From assembly GCA_965655095.1 (NCBI GenBank), contig OZ296648.1, positions 131,688,001-131,752,000 on the forward strand: a DNA stretch of 64,000 nt, in the 5' to 3' direction. Of this stretch, positions 9,001 to 34,836 are shown one piece after another. How positions within the stretch are numbered: position 1 is the stretch's first letter; each line of letters starts with the position of its first letter. The position numbers were made by a program, and so were the translations under genes. Source of the stretch: Haplodiscus bocki. Its lineage: Eukaryota. The notes beneath the pieces are model-generated. The model worked only from the letters and a program-made list of their open reading frames with translations. It did no database searches and was not told the DNA's origin.

Positions 9001-12000
9001 TACGATTGGGTGACATCTAGCTGCATTTTCTGACCTCTCTGCAACCCGCCAGCTACCTAATAAAGGCTCAAGATATTTTGAATACACTTTACGCCAAAAA
9101 AAATTCCACAGGGCTCGATTGAAAGAGTTTAAAAAAGTTGGGAAAATTTGTGACCTTTTGAGCGTATTCTATCAGCTCCGAATCAACTCCACCTTCTTTT
9201 AGAGGCTCCGAAACGTACTCACGTATCTTATAGCTATAGACAAACGCAAGATTGTGGTCATTGTGACCATTCTAGTTGATTAGATTGATTCGGGACCTCA
9301 GAGATATGAGCACTGGAATGATCCACTTTACGATGTTGATGTCTGACGGCATCTTAACGTCCACTGTGGCCAACAAATCACTTTGTTTGGCCTTATTCAT
9401 CTAATTCGCGGTCCACAGCATGCGATAGGACGCTTACTTGGCGTCCGGGTCATGAAAATGGAAAACACGGCGGCAAAAAGTTGTTCTTTACAACTGAGAC
9501 TATTTGTTTTGACCAAAAATGGTCTGCTTCATTGCTACAACTGGGTAACACCTAAGTTTTTTTGTGGCCTCTACGCAGCCCACCAGCTACCCAACAAAAG
9601 TTCAATAGCTATTTTGGATACACTTTACTCCTGAAAAAATTCCATAGGGCTCGATTGAAAGAGTTCAAAAAAGTTGGAAAATTTGACCTTTTGAGCGTCT
9701 TCTATCAGCTCCACATCAACTCCAGCAAATTTTAGAGGGTCCAAAACGTACCCACGTATTAAGTAGCTAAAGAAAAACGCAAGATTGTGGTCATTGTGAC
9801 CATACTAGTTGATTAGATTAATTCGGTACCTCAGAGATATGAGCACTGCAATGATCCACTTTACGATGTTGAGGTCTCACGGCATCTTAACGTCCACTGT
9901 GGCCAACAAATCAATTTGTTTGGCCTTATTCATCTAACTCGCGGTCAACAGCCTGCGATAGGACGTTTAGTTGGGGTCTGGTTCATGAAAATGGAAAACA
10001 CGCAGGCAAAAAGATGTTTTCTAAAACTGAGACCATATGTTTTGACCAAAACTGGTCTCCTTTATTGCTACGATTGGGTGACATCTAGCTGCATTTTCTG
10101 ACCTCTCTGCATCCCGCCAGCTACCTAATAAAGGCTCAAGATATTTTGAATACACTTTACGCCTAAAAAAAATCCACAGGGCTCGATTGAAAGAGTTTAA
10201 AAAAGTTGGGAAAATTTGTGACCTTTTGAGCGTATTCTATCAGCTCCGAATCAACTCCACCTTCTTTTAGACGACCCAAAACGTACTGAGTTACACTTTA
10301 GCTATGGACAAACGCCATATTGTGGTCAATATAGCCATACTAGATAATTAGATTGATTCGGAACCTCAGAGATATGAGCACTGGAATGGTCCACTTTACG
10401 ATGTTAAGGTCTCCACGATATCTTAACGTCCACTCTGGCCAACAAATCGCTTCCTTTGGCCTTATGCACCTAATTGGTGATCAACAGCGTGCGATAGGAC
10501 GTTTAGTTGGGGTAATCGTCATGAAAATGGAAAACACGGAGGCAAAAAGTTGTTTCTTAAAACTGAGACTATATATTTGGACAAAGATGGTCTCCTTTAT
10601 TGCTACAACTCGGTGACATCTAGCTGCATTTTCTGACCTCTCTGCAACCCGCCAGCTACCTAATAAAGGCTCAAGATATTTTGAATACACTTTACGCCAA
10701 AAAAAATTCCACAGGGCTCGATTGAAAGAGTTTAAAAAAGTTGGGAAAATTTGTGACCTTTTGAGCGTATTCTATCAGCTCCGAATCAACTCCACCTTCT
10801 TTTAGAGGCTCCGAAACGTACTCACGTATCTTATAGCTATAGACAAACGCAAGATTGTGGTCATTGTGACCATTCTAGTTGATTAGATTGATTCGGGACC
10901 TCAGAGATATGAGCACTGGAATGATCCACTTTACGATGTTGATGTCTGACGGCATCTTAACGTCCACTGTGGCCAACAAATCACTTTGTTTGGCCTTATT
11001 CATCTAATTCGCGGTCGACAGCATGCGATAGGACGTTTACTTGGCGTCCGGGTCATGAAAATGGAAAACACGGCGGCAAAAAGTTGTTCTTTACAACTGA
11101 GACTATTTGTTTTGACCAAAAATGGTCTGCTTCATTGCTACAACTGGGTAACACCTAAGTTTTTTTGTGGCCTCTACGCAGCCCACCAGCTACCCAACAA
11201 AAGTTCAATAGCTATTTTGGATACACTTTACTCCTGAAAAAATTCCATAGGGCTCGATTGAAAGAGTTCAAAAAAGTTGGAAAATTTGACCTTTTGAGCG
11301 TCTTCTATCAGCTCCACATCAACTCCAGCAAATTTTAGAGGGTCCAAAACGTACCCACGTATTAAGTAGCTAAAGAAAAACGCAAGATTGTGGTCATTGT
11401 GACCATACTAGTTGATTAGATTAATTCGGTACCTCAGAGATATGAGCACTGCAATGATCCACTTTACGATGTTGAGGTCTCACGGCATCTTAACGTCCAC
11501 TGTGGCCAACAAATCAATTTGTTTGGCCTTATTCATCTAATTCACGGTCAACAGCCTGCGATAGGACGTTTAGTTGGGGTCTGGTTCATGAAAATGGAAA
11601 ACACGCAGGCAAAAAGGTGTTTTCTAAAACTGAGACCATATGTTTTGACCAAAACTGGTCTCCTTTATTGCTACGATTGGGTGACATCTAGCTGCATTTT
11701 CTGACGTCTCTGCAACCCGCCAGCTACCTAATAAAGTCTCAAGATATTTTGAATACACTTTACGCCTAAAAAAATTCCACAGGGCTCGATTGAAAGAGTT
11801 TAAAAAAGTTGGGAAAATTTGTGACCTTTTGAGCGTATTCTATCAGCTCCGAATCAACTCCACCTTCTTTTAGACGACCCAAAACGTACTCAGTTACACT
11901 TTAGCTATGGACAAACGCCATATTGTGGTCAATATAGCCATACTAGATAATTAGATTGATTCGGAACCACAGAGATATGAGCACTGGAATGGTCCACTTT

Positions 12001-13369
12001 ACGATGTTAAGGTCTCCACGATATCTTAACGTCCACTCTGGCCAACAAATCGCTTCCTTTGGCCTTATGCACCTAATTGGTGATCAACAGCGTGCGATAG
12101 GACGTTTAGTTGGGGTAATCGTCATGAAAATGGAAAACACGGAGGCAAAAAGTTGTTTCTTAAAACTGAGACTATATATTTGGACAAAGATGGTCTCCTT
12201 TATTGCTACAACTCGGTGACATCTAGCAGCTTTTTCTGACCTCTACACGACCATTCAGATAGTTCAGAAATGTTCAATAGCTATTTTGGATACACTTTAC
12301 TCCTGAAAAATTTCCATAGGGCTCGATTGAAAGTGTTTGAAAAAGTTGGAAAATTTGTGACCTCTTGAGCGTATTCTATCAGCTCCATATCAACTCCAGC
12401 TTTTTTAGAGGCTCCAAAACGTACCCACGTATTAAGTAGCTAAAGAAAAACGCAAGATTGTGGTCATTGTGACCATACTAGTTGATTAGATTAATTCGGT
12501 ACCTCAGAGATATGAGCACTGCAATGATCCACTTTACGATGTTGAGGTCTCACGGCATCTTAACGTCCACTGTGGCCAACAAATCAATTTGTTTGGCCAT
12601 ATTCATCTAATTCGCGGTCAACAGCTTGCGATAGGACGTTTAGTTGGGGTCTGGTTCATGAAAATGGAAAACACGCAGGCAAAAAGATGTTTTCTAAAAC
12701 TGAGACCATATGTTTTGACCAAAACTGGTCTCCTTTATTGCTACGATTGGGTGACATCTAGCTGCATTTTCTGACCTCTCTGCAACCCGCCAGCTACCTA
12801 ATAAAGGCTCAAGATATTTTGAATACACTTTACGCCTAAAAAATTCCACAGGGCTCGATTGAAAGAGTTTAAAAAAGTTGGGAAAATTTGTGACCTTTTG
12901 AGCGTATTCTATCAGCTCCGAAACGTACTCACGTATCTTATAGCTATAGACAAACGCAAGATTGTGGTCATTGTGACCATTCTAGTTGATTAGATTGATT
13001 CGGGACCTCAGAGATATGAGCACTGGAATGATCCACTTTACGATGTTGAGGTCTCACGGCATCTTAACGTCCACTGTGGCCAACAAATCACTTTGTTTGG
13101 CCTTATTCATCTAATTCGCGGTCGACAGCATGCGATAGGACGTTTAGTTGGGGTCTGGTTCATGAAAATGGAAAACACGCAGGCAAAAAGATGTTTTCTA
13201 AAACTGAGACCATATGTTTTGACCAAAACTGGTCTCCTTTATTGCTACGATTGGGTGACATCTAGCTGCATTTTCTGACCTCTCTGCAACCCGCCAGCTA
13301 CCTAATAAAGGCTCAAGATATTTTGAATACACTTTACGCCAAAAAAAATTCCACAGGGCTCGATTGAAA
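1..13369. repeat. Tandem satellite array, ~534-bp monomer, ~25 copies, with higher-order repeats; continues beyond the left edge
   Basis: Landmarks such as GGGCTCGATTGAAAG and GAGATATGAGCACTG recur every ~533-535 bp. Block 1-~1498 is repeated at offset 4268 (8 monomers). Offsets of ~1068 (6178/7247/8315/9383) and 1603 (9383/10986, 9916/11519, 10353/11956) also recur. Confidence 0.98.
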
Positions 13370-13615
13370 GTGGATGAAGAAGTGGGAAGGGTGGTGGGGG
13401 GTGGGGTGGATGAAGAATCGGGGGAGGAGGTGGTGGATGAAGAATCGGGGGAGGGGGTGCTGGTTGAAGAAGTGGTGGGGGGTGGTGGTTGAAGAAGTGG
13501 TGGTTGCAGAAGTGTGTGTGTGTGGTAAGGGGGTCGAAGAAGTGGGGTGGGGGATTGGTCAAAGAGGTGGGGTGGGGGTGGTCAAAGAAGTGGGGGGTCG
13601 TCAAAAAAAGTGGGG
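13370..13615 (+). repeat. G-rich low-complexity junction (degenerate GAAGAAGTGG/GGTGGGG units), G-quadruplex-prone
   Basis: Abrupt switch from satellite to a tract with many G3-G6 runs and almost no C. Confidence 0.85.
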
Positions 13616-14596
13616 ATTCTGCAAAAATAATGAAAAGAATAATTGCCATAAATAAATTTAGGAAAAATTATGTCAAATATTTATGGGACAAGATGCGGAA
13701 TTATTTCTGACTTCATCCATAATTTTCATTACAGCCGTTCGATAACAAGAATATAATTGTCCTATGGAGTGTTTTGTGTGTAACGGATTGGGGGGGGGGG
13801 GGGATCGATGACTAACATTTGCTGTCTTTTTAAAAATTGCTATTAACCGCTAATACATCTTTGCGCTTAACGCTGAAAAACTCAATACTTTCACCTGTTT
13901 TATTACATTCACCCGCTTATTGAAATTACTTGAAGGCGATAAAGTAAAAGTTTGTTCAAAATTTATTGTTGCTGCTTTAGTAAATACTTTTTCTCATCTG
14001 TATGTATTGTTTTAATTTCCTTATCTGCATCTGATTCATATTTAACTGAAAGTCTGCAGCTGCAGATAATTGCATCAAGAAAATTGAGGAAAGACAAAAA
14101 CAGACAACAACCCACCCAAATGTAAGTTGTGCTCAATTTATAAATTTATCTGTTTTAACCAGAAGTAAAAACAATAATTAAAGCCATTTCTTTTCAAAAC
14201 TAAAAATAATTTTTCTTCTCTAATTTCATAGAGATTTCCCATTCACAACACCAAGAAATAGCAACTTTAAAATTCCCAACAATCACCCCGCGCATTTCGA
14301 GAGCTATTCAAAATTAAAACTACGAAAACAGGCGATTGTTAAATGTGACAGCTCCAAACTCAGGTGAAAGACATGTTCGGGAAGGCAAAGTCTAACTTGG
14401 AGTTTAATTTTGATCATTGTTGACAATCTTTTTCTCTTCGCTATGGTATGACAGCATTTGTCAGAATTATTTTTCGGAAATTCAAAATTATTTCTGCGCG
14501 TGCAACTATATTAATAAATTTGGGAACGTTAACTTTAAGGGCAATTATTTACTGTCACATGTTCCATAATATTAAATTATTTTTGCGGAATCCCCG
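13611..14596. mobile_element. Non-autonomous TIR DNA transposon (MITE, hAT-like), copy A, older and diverged
   Basis: Ends GGGATTCTGCAAAAATAAT (13613) and ATTATTTTTGCGGAATCCC (14594) are inverted repeats. 13613-13730 and 14450-14594 match the reverse complement of the two ends of copy B. No clear TSD. Confidence 0.75.
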
Positions 14597-14990
14597 GAGG
14601 GGAGGGAGTCGAAAAAGTGGGCTGGATTCGAAGAAGGGGTCAAAGGAAGAGGTAGAAAGTTATTTTTAATTTGTTATTTTGATTAAATTTATATATCGAT
14701 TCAAATAATTGTTTTTATCATCATTTTATTTTGATCATTATTTTGATTTAAATATTCTAAGTATTCTCAAGTTGAGAGTTTTTCTGAACTATTTTACATT
14801 TTCAATTTGATTATCTGTATTTGTGTTCAATTTTCGGAGTAATGATTTCGGAGTAATGAATAGCAAGCAATCCATTTAAGATTGGACAAACGAGAACTGC
14901 ATTGACGAAAAACAAGAATTCAAAATGATTTATCATTACTTTTTCTCTTTTCGATTTTTTCGAGCCGGAAATCCATTTTCTTTGATATTC

Positions 14991-15061
14991 ATTGGTTGGG
15001 TTCAAATTTTGGCGCGCGGAATTTTGGCTTTTTATTGGTTGACTTGAAATTTTTTCGCGCC
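14991..15061. promoter_or_regulatory. Candidate cell-cycle-type promoter module (2x CCAAT, 2x CHR-like, 2x E2F-like)
   Basis: ATTGG 14991 and 15034; TTCAAA 15001 and CTTGAA 15043; TTTTGGCGCGC 15007 and TTTTCGCGCC 15052. The triad occurs twice with ~43-bp period. No target gene identified. Confidence 0.35.
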
Positions 15062-15237
15062 AATTTTCGACGCAATGAATGTTCGGCGAGATGGGGATAC
15101 TGATACATAATTGTCATTATGGTATTGCAATTATTGCGAAAATAAATTATTTAACATCACTGTTTCAAAATCCACTGTTTGCGGCAACCCTTTTACTTTC
15201 TTCGGTTAACAAAAAATTAGGAATTAAACTAAAATGA

Positions 15238-15310
15238 CATCCCCGGCGGGATTCGAACCCGCGACCTCTGGATTAGAAGTCCAGCGCGCTATCCACTGCG
15301 CTACGGGGAC
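15238..15310 (-). tRNA. trnR-TCT: tRNA-Arg(TCT), intronless, 73 nt
   Basis: Minus strand reads GTCCCCGTAGCGCAGTGGATAGCGCGCTGGACTTCTAATCCAGAGGTCGCGGGTTCGAATCCCGCCGGGGATG: complete cloverleaf, anticodon loop CTTCTAA, A and B boxes, TTTT Pol III terminator 3 nt downstream. Confidence 0.96.
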
Positions 15311-15999
15311 TTTCAAAACCACGTTTCAATCTTTAACTTAATCAAATCACTAAGTTACATTACTATTTTATCAAACCATTCAGCGCGTGATTTACTGAAC
15401 CACACAAGTATTGAACTATCGGAATACATGCACACTAATAAGAACTGCTGAAAGAACTGAAATACAAAAACAAATCGAAAACGCCAAAATTATGGCACAT
15501 AATCCTTCACATCTCAACGAAACTCATGACCTCAAACTTAAGAAAATGTCCCCCACTAATTACCACGGAAAAGAGCTCATCTACAAGAAATTCATTAATT
15601 CGAAGCAGGGATTCCGCAAAAATAATTTAATATTATGGAACGTCCGACAATAGATAATTAACCCTAAAATCAACGTTCCCTAAATTATTGCAAAACAAGG
15701 CACTTGAAGAAATAATTCCGGAATTTTTGAAAATTATTTCAAACAAATGTTCTTAAACCCATCGGTCTTTCCTAAGAATGGAACAGCATGTCATCGATAA
15801 AGTAAATAGAATTTAGGTTTTACTCGACTGAAATGTCTTACCAAAGATTTTGGTACTTTCAGAATACCCTCCAAAGTACGATTAAGTTCTGTTTATTACA
15901 GCAGGTTGAGTTTGCATTTCTAAAAATTATGGTTGAAAGATGAAAAATAATTCCATATCTTGTTCCATAAAAATTTGCCATGAAATTTTTCCTCCAATA

Positions 16000-16794
16000 T
16001 GTAGCAGTTGAATTTTCTTGCCTAAATTTTACTTTCATAAACTGAACTAAATTTGTAGCTACTGAGTCAAGTACCCTCGAGTGCTGTAAGCCCCTTTATT
16101 AAACTCTCTTGTTTCACTAAATTAATGATTCAAGTACCTTCGAGCACTTCTTATCTATTCTCAAATGTCATGCAAAATTCCTTTCATACGCTCGCTCACC
16201 ATAATACTTAGCCTACAAGTGTGATATAAACCCTTTCGTAACCGTACACTCATTTATATGCAGTTATAATATTTTCCTAGCGTATTTTCCAAATTTAATA
16301 CTATTAGTCAAACCAAAACTGACCTGACCTCCGCCCTCGAAGAAGAACCCTCGACGATCGCGCAAAGAAATTCTGACAAAAATCCCAATCATACGAACCC
16401 AGAACACGAACAAGCAAACAGACGGTCCAACTACAACTCACCTTCAACAGAAGAGAAAGAAAAGTAGCTCAAGAGCCCCTCTTTGCGAAATTTCAACCCA
16501 AAAGACAAAGACACTTCCCTGAACAAGAACTCTCATTATAATGTAAGTTTATACAAAAACCCTCTGTAATTTAAAACCTTTAACTTTCTTTCTTTTCTTT
16601 TCTAATTTAAATTCTTTCTAAAAAGCCAAAAACAATTTTTGTATTCACTTGAGATATCCCGCTAGCAACCACCAAACCAAAAACACCTAAATAGTAATTT
16701 TAGAAATTACTGAAGTACCATTTCCAATAACAGTCGTCCTCCGCATCCAAAATCATTTTCTAGCGAACTGTTTTAAAAGCATACGACTGTTACA
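16000..16794 (+). repeat. 5' LTR (795 bp)
   Basis: Matches 27823-28627 except for one substitution and a 10-bp indel (compared by eye); TATAAA at 16225 and Inr-like TCATTT at 16250. Confidence 0.97.
16541..16548 (+). promoter_or_regulatory. Major splice donor AT|GTAAGT, supplying the AT of the env and ORF4 start codons
   Basis: Consensus GTAAGT at 16543; joining to AG|G at 23976/23977 or 26736/26737 creates an in-frame ATG in both cases. Confidence 0.8.
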
Positions 16795-16797
16795 AAA

Positions 16798-16815
16798 TGG
16801 TGACAGGAGTGGGAT
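16798..16815 (+). other. Primer binding site, tRNA-Leu
   Basis: TGGTGACAGGAGTGGGAT lies 3 nt after the LTR; 17/18 match to the complement of the metazoan tRNA-Leu(CAG) 3' end as recalled (TGGTGTCAGGAGTGGGAT). Confidence 0.85.
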
Positions 16816-17910
16816 ACCTCAAGTGAAAGGTCGTTTAAAAACGATCCGCGTGCGATTTTCGAAAATTGGAAAAGTGATTTAGTTTTTCCCCTTTCTTAGC
16901 TTTGGCCCAAGACCTTCGCCCACTGTTTTTCTTGTCACTGAATTTCAGTGCCCGCCAGCTAAGATCCTCTTCACCGGACTGTGTCCGAGCCTAGTTTTCC
17001 TAAGATCCTCTTCACCGGACTTTGTCCGAGCCTAGTTTCCCCAGCTTCGTGCTGTGTATTCCGCGTTATGCGAGTTCTGGCAAGACCCACTAAGATGGCC
17101 CTTAAGTTTTAAGGATCTCACGTGAGTACTAGCTAAAACTTCAATTTTTCTTGAAATTTTTCGTACATTTTTGCTTTTGTAGCCCCTTTTCCTTTAATGT
17201 CCGTTCAGTTTTGTGCACATACGTCACCCCATGCCCGAGTTTTTTCTGTGAGTCCACCTTCACCCCCACCAGCGTACCGACCCGTGCAAAACCGTTTCCC
17301 AATCATCAGTACAACCTGCCTTTTCAACATTTTTCTCGCACTGACTGTCATTACGCTACTCCTACTGATAGCCGCCATAACCAGATTAGCTTTCGAAGTT
17401 CACGAAACCAGAAAACAGTGTTCCCGTGCAGTAAACGCTAAATTTTCAACAAAACAAATTTTTGAGTAGAGTTTGCAATTCCGATGTATCTTTTTGGTTT
17501 TCCTGTGTCAACCACCACGAACACGTTACCTAAAGAAATTTTTATTCCCTGTTATTTCTGTCAAGTCCGTACACATCAAATCCCAATCGCTTTTCGGCCC
17601 GAGTCCTCTTTTACACCGCATCAATTGAGTATTCACTATCGACTTGAAGGAATTCATTACCAACACAGTGAGACGCACCCACTAATTCAATTTTTCCCTA
17701 ACACGAACCATCCCAACCACATTAAGTCCACAAGTAGTTTCTTCTTCCCAATCCTAACTCAAATCTGGAGAATTTATATTGAATTCTTGTCGCACTACTT
17801 TACTGACCCCCTTGCGATCGTGTACCCAGGTAGTGGTCCCTCTCAACTTGATGACCTCAGCCGCTAATAATTCGAAGTAGTTTGATTTTCTTTGAGTTTT
17901 TTTAATCACT

Positions 17911-19129
17911 ATGTCGACAACCGTCGCTACGGCAACGACCACCACCGCCACCATTACAAGTGCAGGAGGAACCACTTCTAGCACGCCTACCTCCTCCACT
18001 GCTACCACCAGTGCAACAAGTACCCCAGTTTCGTCGACCGCAACTAGCTCAACGCCTACTGCAACCCTAGGCACTGGTGCTGCCGCACCTGGCACGCCGT
18101 TCGCGACACCTTTTGGCCCCGGAGGTGCCCCTTCTGTAACTCCTTTGCCCTCATGCCTTATGCCAGAAAGTTTCACCGGATCTGGTGATTTTGAGGACTA
18201 CCTACAGCAATTTAATACTGCTGCCTTACTTTCTGGTTGGTTTTCACTAACCCAAGACAACAGGCGACATTATTTCGCCCTTCGGCTGCGAGGAAATGCC
18301 CTGCACTTCTACACAACGCTTTCTGCAGCCCAACAAACTGATTTCAATTTGTTAGTTGATGCCTTCCGGCAGAACTATACAACGAATGTCGACATACTGA
18401 AAGCAAGATTGAAAGCTGCCCGACAGCAACCCAATCAAGATATTTCTGCCTTTTTGTGTGACATTAGAACACTCGCGCGACGCGCCTATCGCGCTTTTCC
18501 TCACTTAGTAGAACAAATTGTCCTGACTAGTTTCATCGAAGGCCTGAGCGATGCAACGCTTCGATGGGAACTTAGAAAGTCCAAACCAGCTACAGCTGAT
18601 GATGCTCTAGCCCTGGCCATGGAATTGAATTCTTTCCTGGAAATTGAGAAAGGAGCCCCATCAACAAGCAAAATGGCCGAGACCAGCGTAAACGCGATCT
18701 CCCGTGAAACTCCTGAGCCACCCACCAAAGAGTGGATGGACGAGCTTGTTCGAACGCTAACGGACGGAATCAAGAACTCCATGCCTAAGCCGAGCCAAGA
18801 AGGATCCCGACAGCGTAATAGCACGCCAAATCGCCACCAACCTTCTCGGTCAAACAGTACCGACTCACAAGGAACCCGAACGGTCCGTTTTCAAAATATT
18901 TCGAACGAAAGAAGAAATAAGTGGCCGAGACAATAATTGGCGCGGACCCAACCGGCAAAATACGAAGTCTAACCGATCGAATGACAACAGAAACAGCTCC
19001 AAAGGACCTTGCAAACATTGTAAACGCGAAAATCATGCCTCAAACGAATGCAAAGCGTGTTTCAAGTGTGGAAAGATTGGACACTTCCGCAATGAGTGTC
19101 GAAGTAACACTCCCAACAATTTAAACTAA
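17911..19129 (+). CDS. gag: Gag (Thr-rich N-terminus, capsid, two CCHC zinc knuckles); frameshifted near 18900-18935 in this copy
   Basis: ORF 17911-18936 has a retrotransposon capsid-like region (PESFTGSGDFEDYLQQF...RQQPNQDISAF). The zinc knuckles CKHCKRENHASNEC and CFKCGKIGHFRNEC (from 19010) are in the +1 frame, which ends at TAA 19127-19129. Confidence 0.9.
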
Positions 19130-19171
19130 GAAAGTCTACGCCAGAGGGTCAACGCGCAGACAAAGACACTC
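19120..19171 (+). promoter_or_regulatory. -1 programmed ribosomal frameshift signal (U UUA AAC plus putative pseudoknot)
   Basis: T TTA AAC immediately precedes the gag stop, in the correct phase to enter the protease frame. After a 7-nt spacer: stem GTCTACGC/GCGCAGAC and loop-tail pairing GAGGGTC/GACACTC. Confidence 0.8.
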
Positions 19172-19935
19172 CCCCAGGCCCACAAATTGAAACATTGAAT
19201 TCTGTTGTTGATCACCGAAGTGAGTTCATTCAAATAACAATTTTTGATCGCATAATCGAAGCGATATGCGACAGTGGAGCAAGTGTGTCATGCCTTAGTA
19301 GTGAAATCTATGATTCCCTCAGATTGAAACATTCTTTGAAATTGCAACCTGCCCTGAGACAACTGAAAGCTGCAAATCAATTGCCCATTGAGACTCGAGG
19401 CGTTGTACGCCTCCCAATAAGTTTAGGCGGAAGAAAATTTGAACATAATTTTCATGTTTTGGCTAAGTCGGAGGCCGATTGCCTTATAGGACTCGATTTT
19501 TTGGAAGATCACCAATGTGATCCACTTTTTTCGCAGAAGAAATTGCGAGTGAATGATGACACTTTTGTCCCATTAAATCACAAAGTTTATACCATACAAA
19601 CTGATCAAGTCTTCCGAGTTGCTTCCACTGACAACGTTTGGATCCCAGCAGGTCATTCGATGATCATACCAGCCCATATCCCAGGATGGAAGCGCCCACC
19701 AATAGAGTTGGCCGCCGTATTCGAGCCGCATGAACGGTTCAAGGTAGACAAAGAGGTCAGTGCTGACCATGTCTTGTTTAATTTCTCCGAGGAAACAATC
19801 CCGGTGATGGTAACAAACACTGGGGATGAAGCGATCATGATACATAAAGACACCACATTGGGACAATCTGAACTAGTCGCAACGGATAAAATTCAAAACA
19901 TTAGTACATTGAAAAGCCGCAAAAGCCAAAACTAA
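19120..19935 (+). CDS. pro: Aspartic protease plus degenerate dUTPase-like segment (N-terminal part of pol)
   Basis: AICDSGASVSCL catalytic motif and CLIGLDFL; frame is open from the slippery site; separated from RT by an apparent 1-nt frameshift at ~19920-19935. Confidence 0.9.
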   Translation, partial: FKLRKSTPEGQRADKDTPPGPQIETLNSVVDHRSEFIQITIFDRIIEAICDSGASVSCLSSEIYDSLRLKHSLKLQPALRQLKAANQLPIETRGVVRLPISLGGRKFEHNFHVLAKSEADCLIGLDFLEDHQCDPLFSQKKLRVNDDTFVPLNHKVYTIQTDQVFRVASTDNVWIPAGHSMIIPAHIPGWKRPPIELAAVFEPHERFKVDKEVSADHVLFNFSEETIPVMVTNTGDEAIMIHKDTTLGQSELVATDKIQNISTLKSRKSQN

Positions 19936-19961
19936 AGGACAAAAAGGATGCCAAGTACGAT

Positions 19962-22900
19962 TTGAAACTTGTCAAAAACTCTATCGATACTGGTATTTCT
20001 CAGAAAGCAAAAGCAAAGTTCTATAAACTAATCAATGAGTTTTCTGATGTGATCTCAAAAAATGAATGGGATATTGGCCAATGCGATGTAGCCGCCCACA
20101 AGATTCAAGTAGAACCCGGATCGCGACCAATTAAACTCCCCAACAGAAGAATGCCCTTACATTACAAGGACGATCTACAGGAAAAGATCGATGCTTTCCT
20201 AGAAAAGAAGTTAATCACGCCTTGTCATAGCCCATATAGTGCACCGGCCATGCTCGTCCCGAAGAAAAACGGCAAACTGCGTTTAGTAATAGACTACCGG
20301 CAGTTGAATAAACAAACAATCAAGTCCTGTTGGCCCATTCCATCCATAGAAGAAATCTTTGACACCTTAGAAGGAAGTGAATTCTTTACCACGATTGATA
20401 TGTCGTGGGGTTTCTACCAGCTCCCAATGGCTGAAGAAAGTCAACACTTTACCGCTTTTAGCACGCCTTTCGGATCTTTCAAATGGCTCCGAATGCCTAT
20501 GGGACTGACCGGTAGCCCGAATACTTTTCAAAGCTTGATGGAACAGGTTCTAGTTGGCCTAACTTGGAAGACAACAGTCCCTTATTTCGATGATTGTATC
20601 ATCTTCTCTTCTATGGCTGAAGAACACATTGAAAGATTAAGAGAAGTTCTTGAACGGTTTCGCCTTGCGAATCTAAAAATAAACCCAACAAAATGTGAAT
20701 TTTTCCGGACTCGCGTCCCCTTTCTTGGCCATATCATCAGCAAGAATGGTCTAGAGGCGGACCCGGACAAAATTGCTGCCGTTAAAAAGTTTCCCATCCC
20801 TACAAATCCGACCGAAGTAAAATCTTTTCTTGGTTTATGTTCTTACTACCGTCGTTATGTGCAAAATTTTGCTGAAATAGCCCGACCACTCCACAAAGAA
20901 AGTGAAGCAACTACAAATTTAAAGTGGACACCCGAAGCCCAAGATGCTTTTGAAACTCTGAAATCTCGATTAACGACTACGCCCATTTTGGCTTTTCCTA
21001 TCATGAAAGAACCTTTCATCCTGTACACCGACGCTAGCCTAACGGCTATGGGCGCTGTCTTGTCGCAAGTACAAGATGGACAGGAGCGTGCCATCTGCTA
21101 CGCCTCAAAAGCTTTCTCGAAAGCCCAAACTAGATATTCTGCGACTAAAAGAGAATTGTTAGCCGTCGTTAACTTCACACGACACTTCAAACATTACTTG
21201 CTTGGTCATAAATTCACAATTATCACTGATCATCGCGCCCTACAATGGCTCCACAACTTCAAGGACCCAGATGCACTAACCGCCCGCTGGCTTGAAAAAC
21301 TTGCCGCTTTCAACTACGAGGTAGTGCATAGGCCCGGAAAATCGATTGGCCATGCCGATGGTCTATCCCGAACACCACTTAGAGCATTTAATGCAATTGC
21401 AACTGAAGACCCAGCTGCAGATGCGCCTGAAGAAGACCAAGAATGGCCCAACCGCACGAATGAAAGTCCACCTGACCCCAAACATTTCCAATATTCGGAG
21501 ATCCAAGGCGATGTACTGCAATCAACTGACTCCATTGCTCACTGTATTTCAGCTGACTTCAAGCTAGGAGCAGGAATCGCTCGAAGCATTAAGCGACGCT
21601 TTCCAACGCAGTACCCCGACAAAGAAGCCATCGCTAGCGAAGTCATTTGGCCGCAATGGATCCCCGAATCGCAAAGTTTCGTCTATCATTTAATAACAAA
21701 AGTGCGTTATTTCCATAAACCAACGTACAAGGCATTGAGATTATCTCTAGAGGCAATGAAAAACCACGCTGAAAGCAAAAAAGTTTTGCGTATTAGCATG
21801 CCCCAGATAGGTTGTGGCCTCGATAAACTTGATTGGAATAAAGTTCGAACATTGATTAAAGAAGTTTTCCGACCTACCAACATAGAGATCATCGTGTTTC
21901 TAAAGCCCTTAAAAGAACCGCCACGCGCAAGTCAAAACCCAGTTAACTCCTCTGATAATGCAGTTGCAGCAGAAACGCCTAATATTTCCGAAACGTTGAC
22001 TTCCCTCGCATCGGCACAGAGAGCCGACCCACAATTGAAGAATCTTTTTCAATGGGTCATACGTGGTACACCACCAAGTACCCACGAGTTACAAGGACTG
22101 CCGCGAGCAACATGGCAATTGGTCAACGAATTCCGCAGTCTGAAGATCATCAATGACGTTCTATGTAGAGAATTCATCCACAAAGAACGCCCATTGTACT
22201 ATCATCAACTGATCCCTGCGTCATTAGTACCCCAAGTCCTGAACTCAATCCACTCATCGACCACTGGAGGTCACCTAGGAATAATCAAAACTGTAGAAAA
22301 AGTACGTGAACGTTTCTACTGGCCTGGCTTCCAGGAGGATGTGAAATTATTCATCAATCGTTGTGAACAATGTCAGAAAAGAGCCAACCCACCCAAGACC
22401 CATCGACATTCTTTGGTCGAATGGACCCCAAGCTATCCGTTTCATCATATCGGCATTGATTTTATGAGTCCCTTACCATTGTCGAACGGTAACCAACACA
22501 TTCTTTTGATTGGCGATCAATTTTCGAAGTGGTACGAAGCGATTCCACTTCCCGACCAAACTGCTTCTACCACAGCTACGGCTCTTCTTGAAAATTGGAT
22601 CTGTAGATTTGGATGCCCCCACAGTATCCATAGCGATCAAGGTCGTAACTTCGAATCAGAACTTTTCAAAAGTCTGAATCAAGCCTTGCAAGTTGACAAG
22701 ACCCGAACAACAGCCTTCCGGCCCCAGTCGAACGCGGTTGTGGAACGGATGAACCGTACGTTGCAATCAATGCTTGCCAAATGCGTCAACGATGAACAAA
22801 GTAACTGGTCACAACAGTTATCGTATGTCATGATGGCATATCGTACCTCGGTTCACGAATCCACAGGGTACACTCCACACCTTCTTGTCTATGGACAGGA

Positions 22901-24035
22901 AGTCTGCCTTCCTATTGATTTCATGTATCCAAATCCGAGTGATCAACCCCCAGCCGACCTCCATGAATTTGTGTCAGCCCGACAAGTCAGATTTCAAAAG
23001 GCGTACGATTCGGCTCGTACAGCCCTGAATTTCAATCAGCGACGCAGAAACGCCCTTTACAATCGAAAGGTCCATGGACCCACCTATCAAGTCAATCAAA
23101 AGGTTCTACTACACAATCCCGTTGTCCCAGTTGGAAAGTCACCAAAGTTCTTTAGCCCATGGAAAGGTCCATATGTCATTTTACAATGCCTCAATGATGT
23201 GACCCACCGCATTCAAGAAATTGCAAATCAAAAAGAACTTGTTGTTCATTATGACCGACTGAAGTTATTCCATGAACCCCCACCGACCTCGAATGTACCA
23301 ACGCGTGATAAAAGAAATCCGAAAAACATATCTCAACCAAAACCTCAGCAACAAGAACCATCAATCCCCGAGTACGACCACGATCAATGCACCTGGCATT
23401 ATCCGTACCATACCGTCCCTTCAGCAACCACTTGTTCTCGTGGCGTTGCTTGCACAACCCCGCCTGCTACGCCTGCACCAGCAACTACTCCAGTTGGTTC
23501 CCCCAAACCTGTACTACCGAGTCCCTCTTCTTCCTATTCTGGAGCTACAGCACCCTATAGTCATGGCTCTCCCAGCACACCGAAGACAACCACTTCTCTC
23601 CGTTCAGGCACACCTACACCTGAACCTCAAACATCTGCAGAATCACCAGCTCACTCCCGAAGCCTTCCTAGCAGCCCTTCTACGCCGTCTTCTGTGAGAT
23701 CAAAACCATGGTTCCGCGAAGTCATTGACAATGCTTCTCGTACTCTTCAATTTGGTGATGCACCAACTCACGCCCAACCTCAACATAACCTCCGCAGTAG
23801 TACAAAAGAACAACGCAAAGCCCAACCATTATGGAAAGCAAAACTACCTCCTGACCTAAGTGATTTCACTTCCCCCGCCAGCTCGAAGAAGAAAAGAAAA
23901 GTTCGCCCACTTCATAACTTTCACTCCTTTCAGAACGCTAATTTCACACCTTTTACTCCTCATATCGTTCTTTTAGGCTTCCTTTCCTACTTTCACTCGT
24001 CCTTCTCAATGGCCCGCCTCTTTGTTACACTGTGA
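19962..24035 (+). CDS. pol: Pol: reverse transcriptase, RNase H, macrodomain, integrase (HHCC, DDE, GPY/F), Ser/Pro/Thr-rich tail
   Basis: RT LRLVIDYRQLN, MPMGL, YFDD (20583); RH LYTDAS, RELLAV, TDHRAL, HADGLSR; IN H..GHLG..CEQC, GIDF, HSDQGRNF, VERMN, WKGPY. Confidence 0.97.
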   Translation: MKLVKNSIDTGISQKAKAKFYKLINEFSDVISKNEWDIGQCDVAAHKIQVEPGSRPIKLPNRRMPLHYKDDLQEKIDAFLEKKLITPCHSPYSAPAMLVPKKNGKLRLVIDYRQLNKQTIKSCWPIPSIEEIFDTLEGSEFFTTIDMSWGFYQLPMAEESQHFTAFSTPFGSFKWLRMPMGLTGSPNTFQSLMEQVLVGLTWKTTVPYFDDCIIFSSMAEEHIERLREVLERFRLANLKINPTKCEFFRTRVPFLGHIISKNGLEADPDKIAAVKKFPIPTNPTEVKSFLGLCSYYRRYVQNFAEIARPLHKESEATTNLKWTPEAQDAFETLKSRLTTTPILAFPIMKEPFILYTDASLTAMGAVLSQVQDGQERAICYASKAFSKAQTRYSATKRELLAVVNFTRHFKHYLLGHKFTIITDHRALQWLHNFKDPDALTARWLEKLAAFNYEVVHRPGKSIGHADGLSRTPLRAFNAIATEDPAADAPEEDQEWPNRTNESPPDPKHFQYSEIQGDVLQSTDSIAHCISADFKLGAGIARSIKRRFPTQYPDKEAIASEVIWPQWIPESQSFVYHLITKVRYFHKPTYKALRLSLEAMKNHAESKKVLRISMPQIGCGLDKLDWNKVRTLIKEVFRPTNIEIIVFLKPLKEPPRASQNPVNSSDNAVAAETPNISETLTSLASAQRADPQLKNLFQWVIRGTPPSTHELQGLPRATWQLVNEFRSLKIINDVLCREFIHKERPLYYHQLIPASLVPQVLNSIHSSTTGGHLGIIKTVEKVRERFYWPGFQEDVKLFINRCEQCQKRANPPKTHRHSLVEWTPSYPFHHIGIDFMSPLPLSNGNQHILLIGDQFSKWYEAIPLPDQTASTTATALLENWICRFGCPHSIHSDQGRNFESELFKSLNQALQVDKTRTTAFRPQSNAVVERMNRTLQSMLAKCVNDEQSNWSQQLSYVMMAYRTSVHESTGYTPHLLVYGQEVCLPIDFMYPNPSDQPPADLHEFVSARQVRFQKAYDSARTALNFNQRRRNALYNRKVHGPTYQVNQKVLLHNPVVPVGKSPKFFSPWKGPYVILQCLNDVTHRIQEIANQKELVVHYDRLKLFHEPPPTSNVPTRDKRNPKNISQPKPQQQEPSIPEYDHDQCTWHYPYHTVPSATTCSRGVACTTPPATPAPATTPVGSPKPVLPSPSSSYSGATAPYSHGSPSTPKTTTSLRSGTPTPEPQTSAESPAHSRSLPSSPSTPSSVRSKPWFREVIDNASRTLQFGDAPTHAQPQHNLRSSTKEQRKAQPLWKAKLPPDLSDFTSPASSKKKRKVRPLHNFHSFQNANFTPFTPHIVLLGFLSYFHSSFSMARLFVTL
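21486..21905 (+). other. TARG1/OARD1 (Poa1p-like) macrodomain embedded in Pol
   Basis: GDVLQSTDSIAHCISADFKLGAGIA ... YHLITK ... HKPTYKALRLSLEAMK ... ISMPQIGCGLDKLDW closely follows the OARD1/TARG1 signature, including the catalytic Lys (LITK) and Asp (GCGLD). Confidence 0.92.
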
Positions 24036-26302
24036 CCCACTACTCGACTCATCTCAACGATCAGCCAGAAGTTCCAGTCTTCAAGAAAGGCGCTGCCTTC
24101 CTCTTCAAATACCAAGCAGTCACTTCCGAAAGTGAGAGCAAAGTTCGAGTGTTCTCCCCGTTCCCGAAAATCCCGGATGTCAATCTTACTGGAGCTGAAG
24201 AATTGTTGAGCCTAGCGAAAATACGAATAACCGGAATTGGTGGCATGTATGTCCAAAAAGTTTGTGAATTCCAAGAAATCAACAAAACATATGGCCTATT
24301 AATGACACAGTTGAAGGATCGCGTCGAATTGATCAAGCTTGAAGTGAAACAAGCAACAGATGAGCAAGGAAAGCTCGCAGACGTAATGAAGTCTTTTCTC
24401 CCGAAACAGTATCAGAGGAACGTGGCGACGCTTCCACGTTCGAAACGATTTATTGGCGCAGTAGCTGCTCTTGCAGCAGGTGCCGGATTGATCCTGGGAG
24501 ACCCGTTGAAAGAAGCTGCATGTACAGCCGTCTCGATTTTTAACTTGTGCGATGACACAAGCAGTTTGTCCCAAGACATGGACCAGATCCTGAAAACGCA
24601 GGAAGAAATAATAGCGACCTTGCAACGTGTCCAGTCAGCCAATGATCAAAACTTCTTCCTACTGGGTAATGAAGTCCGAGAAACGCAACAAAATGTTAAG
24701 AACCTTCGTGATGCTGTGAATGATCACCTACAGGTTCTCCATGATCGAATAAATGGAATTCAAGGAGATTTAATTCAACATAAAGAATGTCAACGAAGAC
24801 AAGCTCAACATTCCCTCTTCCTCCAAGAGATTAGATATACCATATCTCATTTGGGTACCTTGTATACTCACATAAAGTCTTACCAAGCTGCGTTCTACGC
24901 CTACAAGATTAACTTGTTCTCGACGATCTCGTCCCTTGCTAGTGGCCAAATAACCCCCCAGTTGCTCCTACCCCCAGAAATCGCTGACATTGTACGAACA
25001 CTGTCAGAAGAAGAGAGTTATCGTGGTACAAAACTTACCCCCGCCATACAGCCTGGCTTCGAAGCTGTCTATTATGAGATTCAACTCGTTTTAGAAGTCA
25101 CGTTAATTCCGCGCGGTATATCAGTTGTACTTGGTGTACCAATGAACTCCAAGTCTTCCACTTTCAACGTGTACCATGCTACCCCGCTGTACCAACCAAA
25201 CGGTGACAACAAGACAGCCTCCTTGTTCCAGCTCGCAAAGCCTTTCTTGGCTGTGGCTACTGACGACTCTCGATACGCCGAATTGGATAGTTCCACCTTA
25301 CAACAATGTTCAGGTAACAATCGGATCAGACTTTGTCGCAAAGGTTTCTCAACCACAACTGATGACACCCTCCTATGCCTGAGTTCTTTGATGTTCGATT
25401 ATGCCATCCCAGCATTGCGTAACTGCCTCGCCAATTCTGTGCTTTTACCTGACGCGCCACAAGCTTTTTATTTGGCCGAAGGATTGTATCATGTCATCTC
25501 CCGTGAACCACTTCTTCACATGAAAAACGCCAGTGATATACATGGTGTCAGTGTTTCAATGATCCCATGTCAAGCCTGCATTTTGAGACCCAGTTGCCAC
25601 AGTACCCTAACCCTGAACCAAGGCGATCTAGTTCTTGAACCGGATATGGACTACTGCTCGACGAGCACAGAGCCCTTCTTTGCCACGATCGAACTGATCC
25701 CATCATTAGAACAAGTCTTCAAACATGTCCCACACTCCAATCATGTCTTTCATGCCTATTCGTTGGGCGAAGCACGTCATTCTGTCCTCAGCAGCGTTCG
25801 TATGGAATTAGCAGAACTCCCGGACGTGCGACGCATGTCAGTTGATTCAATCGACCAACTAGCACACCCGATTGCGCAGTATTACTCATCAATTTCTCCG
25901 GCAACATCACAAGCCCTCGAGTCATATCTCCCCTTTCGCACTGCCGTCTTGTTCTCGACTGTTTCGATTACCCTTTCTTCATTGACTTTCACTATCAGTT
26001 TTACCTTGTTCCGCCGTCAATGGAAACGACTTTTTCTTCATCCACACAAGTTCTTCAAAAGTACAAATGGACGACTCTTGCATGTCACGGACAGTCATGA
26101 AATTCCAGATACAGCCATTGATGACGCTTCTGTTTTCATCCAGCTCAGTTTGGACGAATTCAACGCATTAAAAACACTTGCCAGTGAAACCCTGAGACAC
26201 CCACCCCATAATAACTCATATACCACATGCAATGCCCCTCATATTCCTACCCGTGTCTACCCAGACATCACAGCCCCTCATTATTCCGAGTCTACAACAT
26301 AA
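23977..26302 (+). CDS. env: Env, class I F-type fusion glycoprotein (~775 aa when spliced to the LTR leader)
   Basis: Spliced N-terminus MLPFLLSLVLLNGPPLCYT (signal peptide); furin site RSKR (24437-24448) followed by fusion peptide FIGAVAALAAGAGLILG; heptad repeats; Cys-rich region; N-glycosylation sequons; TM helix 25943-26011 then RRQWKR. Confidence 0.92.
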
Positions 26303-26736
26303 TCTAACTGAACTCCTTAACATCTTGTTGTTGTAACATATCATACATGTCATATTTAAAATCAAAACAATTTGCACTTCTGTACCCCTTTTGTACGTCT
26401 CCGTACTTATCTTGCCTAGATTCACATCATGGCCCAGCTTTTGCACATTTCCGTGCCTGCTCTCTTGTACGTTCCCGTACCTGCCCAGCTTCTGTTGGCC
26501 CGTTTGCACGTGTCCGTGCCCACTTCTTGCTCAGACTTTGATCTGACCCTTGACAAATTGAGACCAATCATGTCTCCCCTGTCCTATGATTTCAGCGTTG
26601 ACAGTATACGTATCCGTATACACGTACCTCAAAAAAACTCAACATTAAAGACTCGTTTCTGTTTTTCTCCCTTCCCCACCCTCTTTTTCTTTAATCCATA
26701 AATTGTGAAATGTTCTTATCATTTTTTTTGTTTCAG

Positions 26737-27733
26737 GTTTCCTACTAAGCGTCCATCTGGCACCCCTCTCTACACCAGCAGTGGAAATGTGTCCATCATC
26801 TCCCCAGGCGACGTTGTCCAGATATTGGATGAACGAGAATATCGAGTACTACGGATCAACCCCCATTCGTCAACGGTGGTCCTACGTCGAGTCGATGCCA
26901 GTACCAATCAACGTAGCTTCATGCGCCCCTCAACTTCCATTTGTACCCTACCAGCCACTACCCGTGATATCGCCGTCGAAGTTAACGAGCCAACTGAAAA
27001 TTGCCTCTGTGAAATCCCGCCCCCTCCCGTCTTGCCAGATGTTGCCGACATTTCAATTAGTTGCAATCTTGACGTTGATGAGTATGTTAACAGTACACAC
27101 CCGGAATTCGACTCTGTTGCTAAGTTGCAACAAGGATTCGAAGAAGCTAAATTGGCCGCTAATGCAGCTTTCAAGGAACTTTGCACCGAGGTCCTGAAAG
27201 TGACAGAACTAAAAGAAAAGATAAATTCCCTGCAGCAACGCATAACAACACTCACAGAGGAGAACGAAGGTCTTTTAAAACGAACAATGGATCTAACAGA
27301 GGACGTGTCTGCCCTATCGGCCATTGCAACAAATAAACGCTACGTACCCGTAATGCAGAGGATCATTTGGCACCATGTGCTTCAACAGCCCCTTTTGCAA
27401 CTCCCCTTAACAATTGGTTTCAATTATGCACCCCCTAACTTCCTCTTCAACCTTCTAGGGTGCCCCCAGTCGTCGACACCCGAACTGATTAGCGAGAACG
27501 TAAAATGCTTATTACAGATTCTCCATCCCGACAAGAACCCACAGGCTCCCCCTACAGTCACCCAGTATATACCTTTGATATCTTTTGCAAAAACTATTTT
27601 GCTGGACAAAAGCCTTTCCCCCGTATACCGCTGCTGTGGTCTGGATGGTATTGCCCGCCGTCAACACAAACTTCGCACTTGTCGCCGTTGTGATCCCTTC
27701 TTGCAAACCCTCAATGACCTAATGGATCTATAG
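26737..27733 (+). CDS. ORF4 accessory protein (~332 aa when spliced): coiled coil, DnaJ-like J-domain, Cys-rich tail
   Basis: Intact ~1-kb ORF between env and the PPT; acceptor TTTTTTTGTTTCAG|G; NFLFNLLGCPQSSTPELISENVKCLLQILHPDKNP...ISFAKTILLDKSLSPVYRCCG fits the J-domain pattern (HPD at 27524-27532). Confidence 0.85.
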
Positions 27734-27809
27734 ATATTCTTTTATAATAATTTTATACATTGTAATAATTATTGTTCGCCTTTTTTTATTTGCGGGACGC
27801 AAACCCAAT

Positions 27810-27822
27810 AAAAGGAGAGTGG
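27810..27822 (+). other. Polypurine tract
   Basis: AAAAGGAGAGTGG immediately 5' of the 3' LTR. Confidence 0.9.
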
Positions 27823-28627
27823 TGTAGCAGTTGAATTTTCTTGCCTAAATTTTACTTTCATAAACTGAACTAAATTTGTAGCTACTGAGTCAAGTACCCT
27901 CGAGTACCCTCGAGTGCTGTAAGCCCCTTTATTAAACTCTCTTGTTTCACTAAATTAATGATTCAAGTACCTTCGAGCACTTCTTATCTATTCTCAAATG
28001 TCATGCAAAATTCCTTTCATACGCTCGCTCACCATAATACTTAGCCTACAAGTGTGATATAAACCCTTTCGTAACCGTACACTCATTTATATGCAGTTAA
28101 AATATTTTCCTAGCGTATTTTCCAAATTTAATACTATTAGTCAAACCAAAACTGACCTGACCTCCGCCCTCGAAGAAGAACCCTCGACGATCGCGCAAAG
28201 AAATTCTGACAAAAATCCCAATCATACGAACCCAGAACACGAACAAGCAAACAGACGGTCCAACTACAACTCACCTTCAACAGAAGAGAAAGAAAAGTAG
28301 CTCAAGAGCCCCTCTTTGCGAAATTTCAACCCAAAAGACAAAGACACTTCCCTGAACAAGAACTCTCATTATAATGTAAGTTTATACAAAAACCCTCTGT
28401 AATTTAAAACCTTTAACTTTCTTTCTTTTCTTTTCTAATTTAAATTCTTTCTAAAAAGCCAAAAACAATTTTTGTATTCACTTGAGATATCCCGCTAGCA
28501 ACCACCAAACCAAAAACACCTAAATAGTAATTTTAGAAATTACTGAAGTACCATTTCCAATAACAGTCGTCCTCCGCATCCAAAATCATTTTCTAGCGAA
28601 CTGTTTTAAAAGCATACGACTGTTACA
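27823..28627 (+). repeat. 3' LTR (805 bp)
   Basis: Direct repeat of 16000-16794 with an extra GTACCCTCGA. Confidence 0.97.
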
Positions 28628-33624: not shown

Positions 33625-34836
33625 TTACTCGACCATCAAGTTTCGCCAAGCAAAATCATAAAAACCTGCAATATTATCAACAGGTGCATCCTCAACACCA
33701 TTGGACGGATCTTTTGCATCATCACGATTAACGATTACGTCACTGATTGGGTGTTTGTTGGAGGTTTTAGCAAGCAGAGACTCCAAATTGCTCAACTGTG
33801 AAAGAATATTACGTAATGCTTGAGGATTTTGTTCAGTTTCTCTGGTTTTCATCATCTCAAAACATTCACAAATGACTCTTTTGGCATCTTCCGATGCAAA
33901 AGCACAGCCTTGGCAAGAAATAACAGCCATTTTGATAATTTCAATCTCTCCACTTTTGAGTGCACGTCGGAAAACTTCCTTCTGTTCACTTTCCTTCATG
34001 TTACGTACAATTTCGGGTCCATAACATTTCATTATATCCAAGAATATGGCCGAATTTTCACAGATAAAATCAGCTGTGAGTACTTGATACAAAAAGTTTG
34101 CGAATCCGGTCAATTTTCCAAGATGTAGCATCGCTTCTTTGCAACCAACTTCAGACAAAATTGAGCAAAACTCTTTTGGAAATCTGAAAATATTTTTCAA
34201 TAGTATGCCAAGCAAATATTTTTTTTCAGGTATTGATTTTGGTTTCTGTTTTCCTAGAGCTGCAAGAAAAGCGTCATGTGATATTTTCCTCGTCAACCAA
34301 TCCGTGATTAATTTCTGCAATTTCAGTTCCGTTTGATTTTGCAGCTCAAAAATGATCAACCACTGGGGGAACCAATACCTGTCTTTGATGAACTCTAAAC
34401 AAGTTTCAGCGCCCAGAGCCATTAAATTGGACGTCGGAAGTTGTGCATGAGCCGAAGAATGTCTTAAAGAAGTAATCCAAGCTGGAATTCCGATGGATTC
34501 ACAAACCACTCTCATGGCTTTCTTCTCATACGAGGTCTGCTCAACGTCTGAAAGAAGACTGACGAAGCGAACGAGAGCTGATGACAAACAGAGTCGAGTT
34601 CGGCAGGTATCTCCTTCTGTTTGGAAACATAAAACAGCCTGAACGAGATCAGCTGTGACGTTGATGCTGGTACTCAAGGAGCATGTACCCATTGTTCGCA
34701 CCTTCCATATCTGGACCATGTCTACCCCCAACTGTCGCTTTTCGGTATCCTCGTGATATAAAAGGTCAAACACGTACTTCCATTCTGCATCACAGGACCA
34801 CGGAACAACTTTGTGTTGGGAAAAATCAGCTCTCAT
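33625..34836 (-). CDS. LAS1L: Ribosome biogenesis HEPN endoribonuclease Las1 / LAS1L homolog (~403 aa, intronless CDS)
   Basis: VVPW...EW..V...LY, WKVR, TADLV, SALVRFV, IPAWITSLRHSSAH (HEPN RHxxxH), YW..Q; first ATG at 34836, preceded by acceptor TTTCTTTTCAG at 34864. Confidence 0.9.
   Translation of the reverse strand: MRADFSQHKVVPWSCDAEWKYVFDLLYHEDTEKRQLGVDMVQIWKVRTMGTCSLSTSINVTADLVQAVLCFQTEGDTCRTRLCLSSALVRFVSLLSDVEQTSYEKKAMRVVCESIGIPAWITSLRHSSAHAQLPTSNLMALGAETCLEFIKDRYWFPQWLIIFELQNQTELKLQKLITDWLTRKISHDAFLAALGKQKPKSIPEKKYLLGILLKNIFRFPKEFCSILSEVGCKEAMLHLGKLTGFANFLYQVLTADFICENSAIFLDIMKCYGPEIVRNMKESEQKEVFRRALKSGEIEIIKMAVISCQGCAFASEDAKRVICECFEMMKTRETEQNPQALRNILSQLSNLESLLAKTSNKHPISDVIVNRDDAKDPSNGVEDAPVDNIAGFYDFAWRNLMVE

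Follow-up and report, generated by a model that had tools for sequence, protein, structure and literature searches.

In Drosophila gypsy and in the springer subclade of insect endogenous retroviruses (ERVs), the start codon of the F-type envelope protein (Env-F) consists of an AT that ends exon 1 and a G that begins exon 2 (PMC2585583, PMC12992720). Gypsy elements with F-type envelope (env) genes are widespread, and the "ancient errantiviruses" of metazoans, which belong to Ty3/gypsy, share with the element described here the order long terminal repeat (LTR)-gag-pol-env, an F-type env, and many recent copies (PMC13524379). We analyzed a stretch of 64,000 nucleotides of the Haplodiscus bocki genome (contig OZ296648.1, positions 131,688,001–131,752,000; hereafter the window, to which all positions refer). 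It harbors a 12.6-kb LTR retrotransposon at 16000–28627. It belongs to Ty3/gypsy and carries an F-type env together with a further gene, ORF4. Comparison of related families indicates that the start codons of both genes are probably formed at the junction by cis-splicing of a donor in the LTR to two acceptors.

Shared first exons occur in papilloma-, influenza-, and deltaretroviruses, and foamy virus genes have their own start codons. In all eight annotated gypsy/springer elements inspected, the AU is not part of the LTR (in gypsy it is at 567–568, with the LTR at 1–482) and serves env only (PMC12992720 supplement), whereas in the window it is part of the LTR, 5' of the primer-binding site (PBS), and fits at least two open reading frames (ORFs). 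In ZAM and Beagle a short coding exon is spliced to env, similar to the Met-Ser exon of family F described below, but the ZAM-type exon (494–531) is situated past the LTR (1–473) and serves env only (PMC12992720). Foamy viruses resemble the window element in that the donor for LTR-derived subgenomic RNAs lies in the R region of the LTR before the PBS (PMC5035957); they differ in being retroviruses, and the available sections of PMC5035957 describe no junction-made initiator. An accessory ORF after pol is expressed by splicing in Caenorhabditis elegans Cer1 (CERV), as is proposed here, but the CERV ORF shares exons with gag (PMC10309623). The short ORFs of MDG1 are unspliced (10.1101/2025.03.14.642691), and rotifer elements have been reported with cargo ORFs (PMC5408684). 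The terms splice, Macro, DnaJ, ORF4, and accessory are absent from the available main text of PMC13524379. In the literature searched, which was mostly open-access, no report was found either of an LTR-encoded initiator common to several ORFs or of an LTR retrotransposon encoding a J-domain. Judged from these comparisons, each ingredient has a precedent, and the combination together with its co-evolution across families appears to be new. An earlier note on this DNA had named the gypsy precedent, in agreement with PMC2585583.

The LTR Splice Donor and Its Leader

The following features of the plus strand define the putative first exon.

16000–16794, plus strand: 5' LTR, TG…CA, 795 nt
16225–16230, plus strand: TATA-like box, the sole TATAAA in the LTR
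16252–16542, plus strand: putative exon 1, an A/C-rich, weakly folded leader that ends in AT
16541–16548, plus strand: LTR splice donor AT/GTAAGT, reading ATGTAAGT, with AT at 16541–16542 and GT at 16543–16544
16798–16815, plus strand: PBS, which we take to be tRNA-Leu-like

The donor was found where the earlier note had placed it, and the unspliced RNA reads ATG followed at once by a stop codon at this site. The distance to the start of the PBS at 16798 is ∼255 nt. With approximate splice matrices, the donor ranked first among the 559 GT sites of the element, and the acceptors of ORF4 and env ranked first and fifth, respectively, among 629 AG sites. The 8-mer ATGTWAGT as such is unremarkable in the window (9 matches versus a mean of 4.5; 7 of 100 shuffles reached 9). 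We infer that transcription starts near 16252. The leader shows no marked folding (z = +0.41), and its T content is 15% before the donor and 35% after it. The absence of ATG from 16261–16540, as claimed earlier, was confirmed for exactly this interval; an ATG is present just outside it at 16258, near the presumed cap. Families B and F likewise have a TATAAA and then an ATG-free stretch as far as the donor.

These families come from a wider sample. The host genome measures 1.5 Gb and contains many copies of the element. Nine families (A–I, the window representing A) were sampled with diverged homologs as queries; E, G, H, and I comprise one or two copies each. Close family-A loci, among them the window copy and, for some elements, the 5' as well as the 3' LTR, retained GTAAGT in 30/30 cases and AT in 27/30. 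The env acceptor kept AG in 28/30 and the ORF4 acceptor in 27/30, with G as the first exon base in 30/30 for both. The conservation in other copies that the earlier note had proposed as a check is thus seen for most of them, but neighboring columns are equally well kept (94–96% identity), so that the test is a weak one.

Acceptors in Front of env and ORF4

Two acceptors lie downstream, each directly in front of a gene.

23937–23977, plus strand: env acceptor, with branch-like CTAAT (GCTAAT at 23937), a pyrimidine tract, and TTTTAG/G at 23976/7
23977–26302, plus strand: F-type env exon, with a hydrophobic stretch straight after the acceptor, the furin site RSKR, and a fusion-peptide-like segment
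26722–26737, plus strand: ORF4 acceptor, with a T-tract and TGTTTCAG/G at 26736/7
26737–27733, plus strand: ORF4, with an SH3/KOW-like barrel (∼26762–26947), a coiled coil, a J-domain with HPD (∼27446–27613), and a Cys-rich tail

Both are AG/G sites in frame with their genes, as had been proposed. In the env frame (23942–26302) and in the ORF4 frame (26702–27733), AGG is one codon, and each exon therefore opens with G in phase 2. In-frame Mets begin at codon 91 of env and codon 63 of ORF4, which fits the 60–90 codons given earlier. Both frames are open for just 11 codons upstream of the acceptor and contain no Met there; for ORF4, the upstream open frame was free of Met in 8/8 representatives. 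The ORF4 acceptor occupies the same location in other families, and the T-tract 5' of it varies in length between copies.

Env gave Atlas matches to Baculo_F and Fusion_gly clusters (0.95–0.96), and two env homologs carry PF12259, whereas the window env itself had no direct match in Pfam or among Protein Data Bank (PDB) sequences. As in errantivirus-like gypsy elements, the third ORF is related to F glycoproteins and has a furin site and a fusion-peptide-like segment. Scanned in 9-mers, the first 170 codons of env reached their hydrophobic maximum within 30 codons of the acceptor in 8/8 representatives (2.6–3.2 versus 1.0–2.1 further in). The window pol ends 56–58 nt beyond the env acceptor, and a frameshift in this overlap might yield Env fused to Pol. 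We consider such a fusion very improbable: the long upstream frame of families B, C, and D stops 119–234 nt before the env acceptor, the signal peptide would become internal, and ORF4, 400 nt past the env stop, would be left unexplained.

For ORF4, the model places a β-barrel at residues 9–70, almost all of it ahead of the first Met; the nearest folds are Spt5 KOW and Tudor (weak, E = 0.02). A single-sequence ORF4 model was poor (pLDDT 48), a broad structure search brought up coiled coils for the most part (best Z 7.4), and an Atlas search gave nothing above 0.80. Toward the C terminus, both a DnaJ profile match and the HPD motif were found. The window protein scored 25.6 bits, slightly below the cut-off of 27.8, and the family H protein scored 53.3 bits (E = 3e-14). 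HPD is present in 23/37 ORF4 homologs, many of which are truncated, as well as in families G, H, and I, and J-domain fold matches were obtained. The J-domain is kept in eight families, down to ∼25% identity. A profile search retrieved 226 cluster representatives at E ≤ 0.001. Judged from its domains, the most likely role of ORF4 is that of a dimeric factor that recruits Hsp70, binds RNA or peptides through its barrel, and acts in RNA export or particle assembly.

Coding Constraint Ahead of the First Methionine

Comparison between families showed that coding constraint starts at the acceptor, before any Met. Over the first 60 codons of ORF4, identity was 72% between A and B (pS 0.86, pN 0.22), 52% between A and C, and 43% between A and D, with pS well above pN. 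The corresponding values for the first 88 codons of env were 70% between A and B (pS 0.58, pN 0.19) and 55% between A and C. The 40 codons 5' of the acceptors aligned poorly between families. Constraint is quoted as pS and pN; dN/dS values of 0.0 are saturation artefacts (26/30 comparison rows). The constraint, the barrel, and the hydrophobic stretch, all ahead of the first Met, imply that the N termini of Env and ORF4 are translated and need a start from elsewhere.

Co-variation of Donor and Acceptor among Families

Env identity between families is 45–67%, except for 97% between C and D (eight families compared, E left out). AT/GT is kept in the LTR of eight of the nine. The site reads AT/GT(A/T)AGT with AT in 27/30 close LTR loci of A, 8/8 of C, 4/4 of D, 1/1 of G, and 2/2 each of H and I. 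Family B has AAT/GTTAGT in 30/30 5' LTRs and 11/12 3' LTRs (41/42), and in the single copy of E the site has decayed with AT retained. It is located 210–270 nt 5' of the PBS in A–D; in H and I it lies 140–190 nt before the end of the two-copy match. Some LTR pairs align no better than shuffled sequences (A with D, 44 versus 45; B with D, 46 versus 52), and 35–66 of 2000 LTRs simulated under a Markov null (1.8–3.3%) contained ATGT[ATG]AGT.

Acceptors were picked by homology and phase. In the families with an AT donor, 13 of the 16 env and ORF4 acceptors are in phase 2 with G, and the three that lack the G have an ATG of their own (at +0 in H env, +1 in H ORF4, and +15 nt in I env). In family F the LTR ends its exon differently: 19 of 20 LTRs read ATG-TC/GTGAGT and one reads ATG-TT, with A at −3 in 20/20 and −2 and −1 varying. 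These 20 were chosen for their similarity to a single copy; paired matches 9–13 kb apart locate the site in the LTR. TC followed by any base encodes Ser, which leaves the first base of the family F acceptors free. In a listing restricted to phase-2 sites, these exons begin with G (env, 6/6 copies), C (a RING-like ORF and two unknown ORFs), or T (a KOW-like ORF), and their first Met lies 23–119 codons in. One Met-Ser mini-exon in the LTR could thereby serve as many as five ORFs, env among them. The earlier suggestion that the device is used twice fits env and ORF4 of the window and is too narrow for the clade.

The cargo after env in family F is variable.

L218:3903–4283, L218:4487–4849, L220, and L222:381–737: cargo ORFs of family F

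It includes the RING-like ORF (E = 2.5e-4, below the cut-off), two ORFs without a Pfam match, and the KOW-like ORF, which is akin to the N terminus of ORF4. Families C, D, and E (L141, L146, and L153 versus L121, L126, and L133) have leaders that are ∼88–94% alike and, for C and D, the nearly identical env, together with strongly different ORF4s and LTRs; this pattern suggests swapping of an ORF4-plus-LTR module.

Donor end and first acceptor base changing together constitutes the strongest support for splice-built initiators, and it is the match between such diverged families that exceeds chance. Host myosin introns use donors that include GTTAGT and T-rich CAG or TAG acceptors that include TTTCAG (about half of 21 junctions were well resolved); the host signals are similar to those of the element. 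Many donors of these introns (L185–L214) are neither GTAAGT nor GTGAGT and start with GTT or GTC. Introns are scarce in certain myosin genes.

The LTR site could instead be kept for another purpose. It might suppress polyadenylation in the 5' LTR through U1, act in upstream ORF (uORF) shunting or reinitiation, or be part of the promoter, with env and ORF4 started via a trans-spliced leader (SL), a non-AUG codon, or a downstream ATG. U1 pairing prefers AG, not AT, ahead of GT, which counts against this idea. The site reads as a uORF of 1–11 codons in 8/8 LTRs checked, and family H keeps AT without an acceptor that supplies G, both in its favor. The major donor in the foamy virus R region suppresses premature polyadenylation (PMC5035957), and SL trans-splicing is known in some invertebrates (PMC9911081). 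As in foamy viruses, the donor is within the LTR, and it may belong to the transcribed R region; AATAAA or ATTAAA 3' of it was absent from A, and ATTAAA was present in B, C, and D. A function of this kind fails to predict that the first acceptor base is fixed as G with AT donors, is free with ATG-TC, and is replaced by own ATGs where the G is absent, and a downstream start would remove the signal-like stretch and the barrel. As a full explanation we therefore judge it improbable. A splicing role and another role of the LTR site can coexist, and AT in family H may be retained for the uORF or by inertia.

Donor-like Sites behind the PBS

Two further sites of the window could act as donors past the PBS, as in Drosophila gypsy.

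17120–17127, plus strand: second donor-like site AC/GTGAGT, present in 21/22 family-A copies and homologous in B, C, and D
17231–17253, plus strand: family-A rival donor, ATG plus 17 nt and then CT/GTGAGT, in phase 2

The site at 17122 reads AC/GTGAGT in A, C, and D and would end in the near-cognate ACG; in 29/30 copies of B it reads AT/GTAAGT, a stronger consensus than the GTTAGT of the B LTR site. The site at 17247/8 is in phase with both acceptors. The ATG was found in 19/22 and GTGAGT in 18/22 family-A copies. That either of them is the main donor seems unlikely. The 17122 site yields no ATG in A, C, or D save for one C copy, and several ATGs lie upstream of it. The 17247/8 site is missing from the donor lists of B, C, and D, and its ATG is lost in 3/22 A copies. 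The co-variation in family F concerns the LTR site. The element shares with gypsy and springer the AT before the donor and the phase-2 AG/G before the putative signal peptide; an AT-bearing donor past LTR and PBS was found in family B only and not in the window.

Evaluation of the Splicing Model

Several observations weigh against splicing from the LTR as set out above. The support is comparative, and the splicing itself is predicted. The transcription start is a predicted position, and the ATG at 16258 may precede the LTR donor. The 17122 site is conserved in A, B, C, and D; family B may use either donor, and spliced RNAs that contain the PBS are possible there. The claim that subgenomic RNAs lack the PBS may consequently fail clade-wide. 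Some old copies miss the LTR site, with no donor in either LTR of L131 and AA/GT in L134. Family H retains AT/GT although neither sampled acceptor supplies G. The acceptors were selected for homology and phase, and a generic matrix puts the C and D env acceptors third locally and the B ORF4 acceptor second. When sites were rescanned without regard to phase, the RING and KOW acceptors of family F came first in their stretches, whereas F env, the two unknown-ORF acceptors of F, and the I ORF4 acceptor were below threshold. Because of the kinship between families and the leader common to C, D, and E, the counts are not independent. As to the proteins, the hydrophobic stretch of family-A Env is short and has no basic n-region, an in-frame Met is present 5' of the env acceptor in four of eight representatives (two B and two D), and family G has Mets near env and ORF4.

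Spliced genomic copies were looked for in a sample of 90 family-A loci and 30 family-B leaders, and none was found there. Deletions in L069, L087, and L183 end away from the splice sites. L069 is a 5-kb deletion derivative in which the leader just past the PBS is joined ∼75 nt 5' of the env acceptor, the acceptor being retained. In four sequence runs over 16000–27822, which resemble DNA in their even cover and genome-sized contig sets, none of the 15 joints listed (of 141) begins at 16542, a result that is silent on expression. Taken together, the family comparison supports the proposal of the earlier note that cis-splicing builds the AT/G start codon.

Other Features of the Element and the Window

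The remaining parts of the element are those of a Ty3/gypsy retrotransposon, with LTRs, PBS, polypurine tract (PPT), and target duplication, and Pfam matches in the order protease (PR), reverse transcriptase (RT), RNaseH, and integrase (IN).

17911–24035, plus strand: gag (with its own ATG), zinc knuckle, protease, and RT-RNaseH-Macro-integrase, in four reading frames in the window copy
27810–27819, plus strand: PPT
27823–28627, plus strand: 3' LTR, 805 nt, in which the donor recurs at 28374–28381
Flanking the element: target duplication AATA, 4 bp

The two LTRs agree in 794 of 795 aligned bases, with one mismatch and one 10-nt indel. A PBS was recovered with 0–2 mismatches in 17/20 5' stretches of other families, and 3/20 had none. 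No conserved acceptor was seen ahead of gag. A weak Pfam match to a Macro domain (E = 0.007) lies between RNaseH and integrase (∼21500–21900, Pol residues 591–650), and the leader contains a 42-nt tandem duplication at 16960–17040. In an Rfam scan the sole match was a tRNA outside the element.

Directly 5' of the element, at 14513–15689, 82-nt inverted repeat arms (85%) flank a tRNA-Arg(TCT) gene on the minus strand (15238–15310). Positions 1–13500 are occupied by a tandem array of 25 copies of ∼533-bp units with higher-order similarity. Two host genes on the minus strand, Las1-like (33625–34959) and SAGA-Tad1-like (37921–39033), each consist of one long open frame and are apparently intronless. 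A LINE-like ORF with a PHD finger, an endonuclease, and an RT is located on the minus strand at 50579–53791.

Discussion

In the proposed mechanism, transcripts would begin in the 5' LTR behind the TATA box at 16225 and pass through the unstructured A/C-rich leader. The unspliced RNA would serve as genome and as gag-pol message, in which the donor would read as a very short uORF. Use of the LTR donor would give an exon 1 that ends in AT and is joined to either phase-2 acceptor, where the G would complete the start codon. The predicted products are an Env that includes the signal peptide and an ORF4 protein that includes the N-terminal barrel. Splicing would thus make the start of the uORF initiate env or ORF4 instead and would at the same time remove the PBS. 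RNAs that have lost the PBS and leader should escape reverse-transcription priming, and a donor 5' of the PBS would in this way hold spliced messages out of the replication pool and probably out of packaging. By analogy with foamy viruses, the donor may additionally keep the 5' LTR from being used for polyadenylation.

Across the clade the LTR would act as a common initiator cassette, with AT in eight families and ATG-TC in one. Whether the LTR of this clade has evolved into an initiator socket, a single module that unites promoter and leader with a start codon and a donor, is in our view an evenly balanced question. Such a socket would explain the changing cargo, which comprises env, J-domain, RING, and KOW-like ORFs as well as unknown ones and numbers up to five in family F. 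If the socket exists, solo LTRs are also predicted to supply host exons downstream of them with a promoter and a start codon. A J-domain, typical of Hsp70 co-chaperones, is in itself an unusual retroelement cargo. ORF finders shorten or overlook genes of this kind, and the accessory genes of invertebrate retroelements are perhaps undercounted as a result. If the splicing model is correct, it provides a rule by which an LTR retrotransposon could express an envelope and several accessory genes from one promoter. Captured genes could be switched on without evolving start codons.

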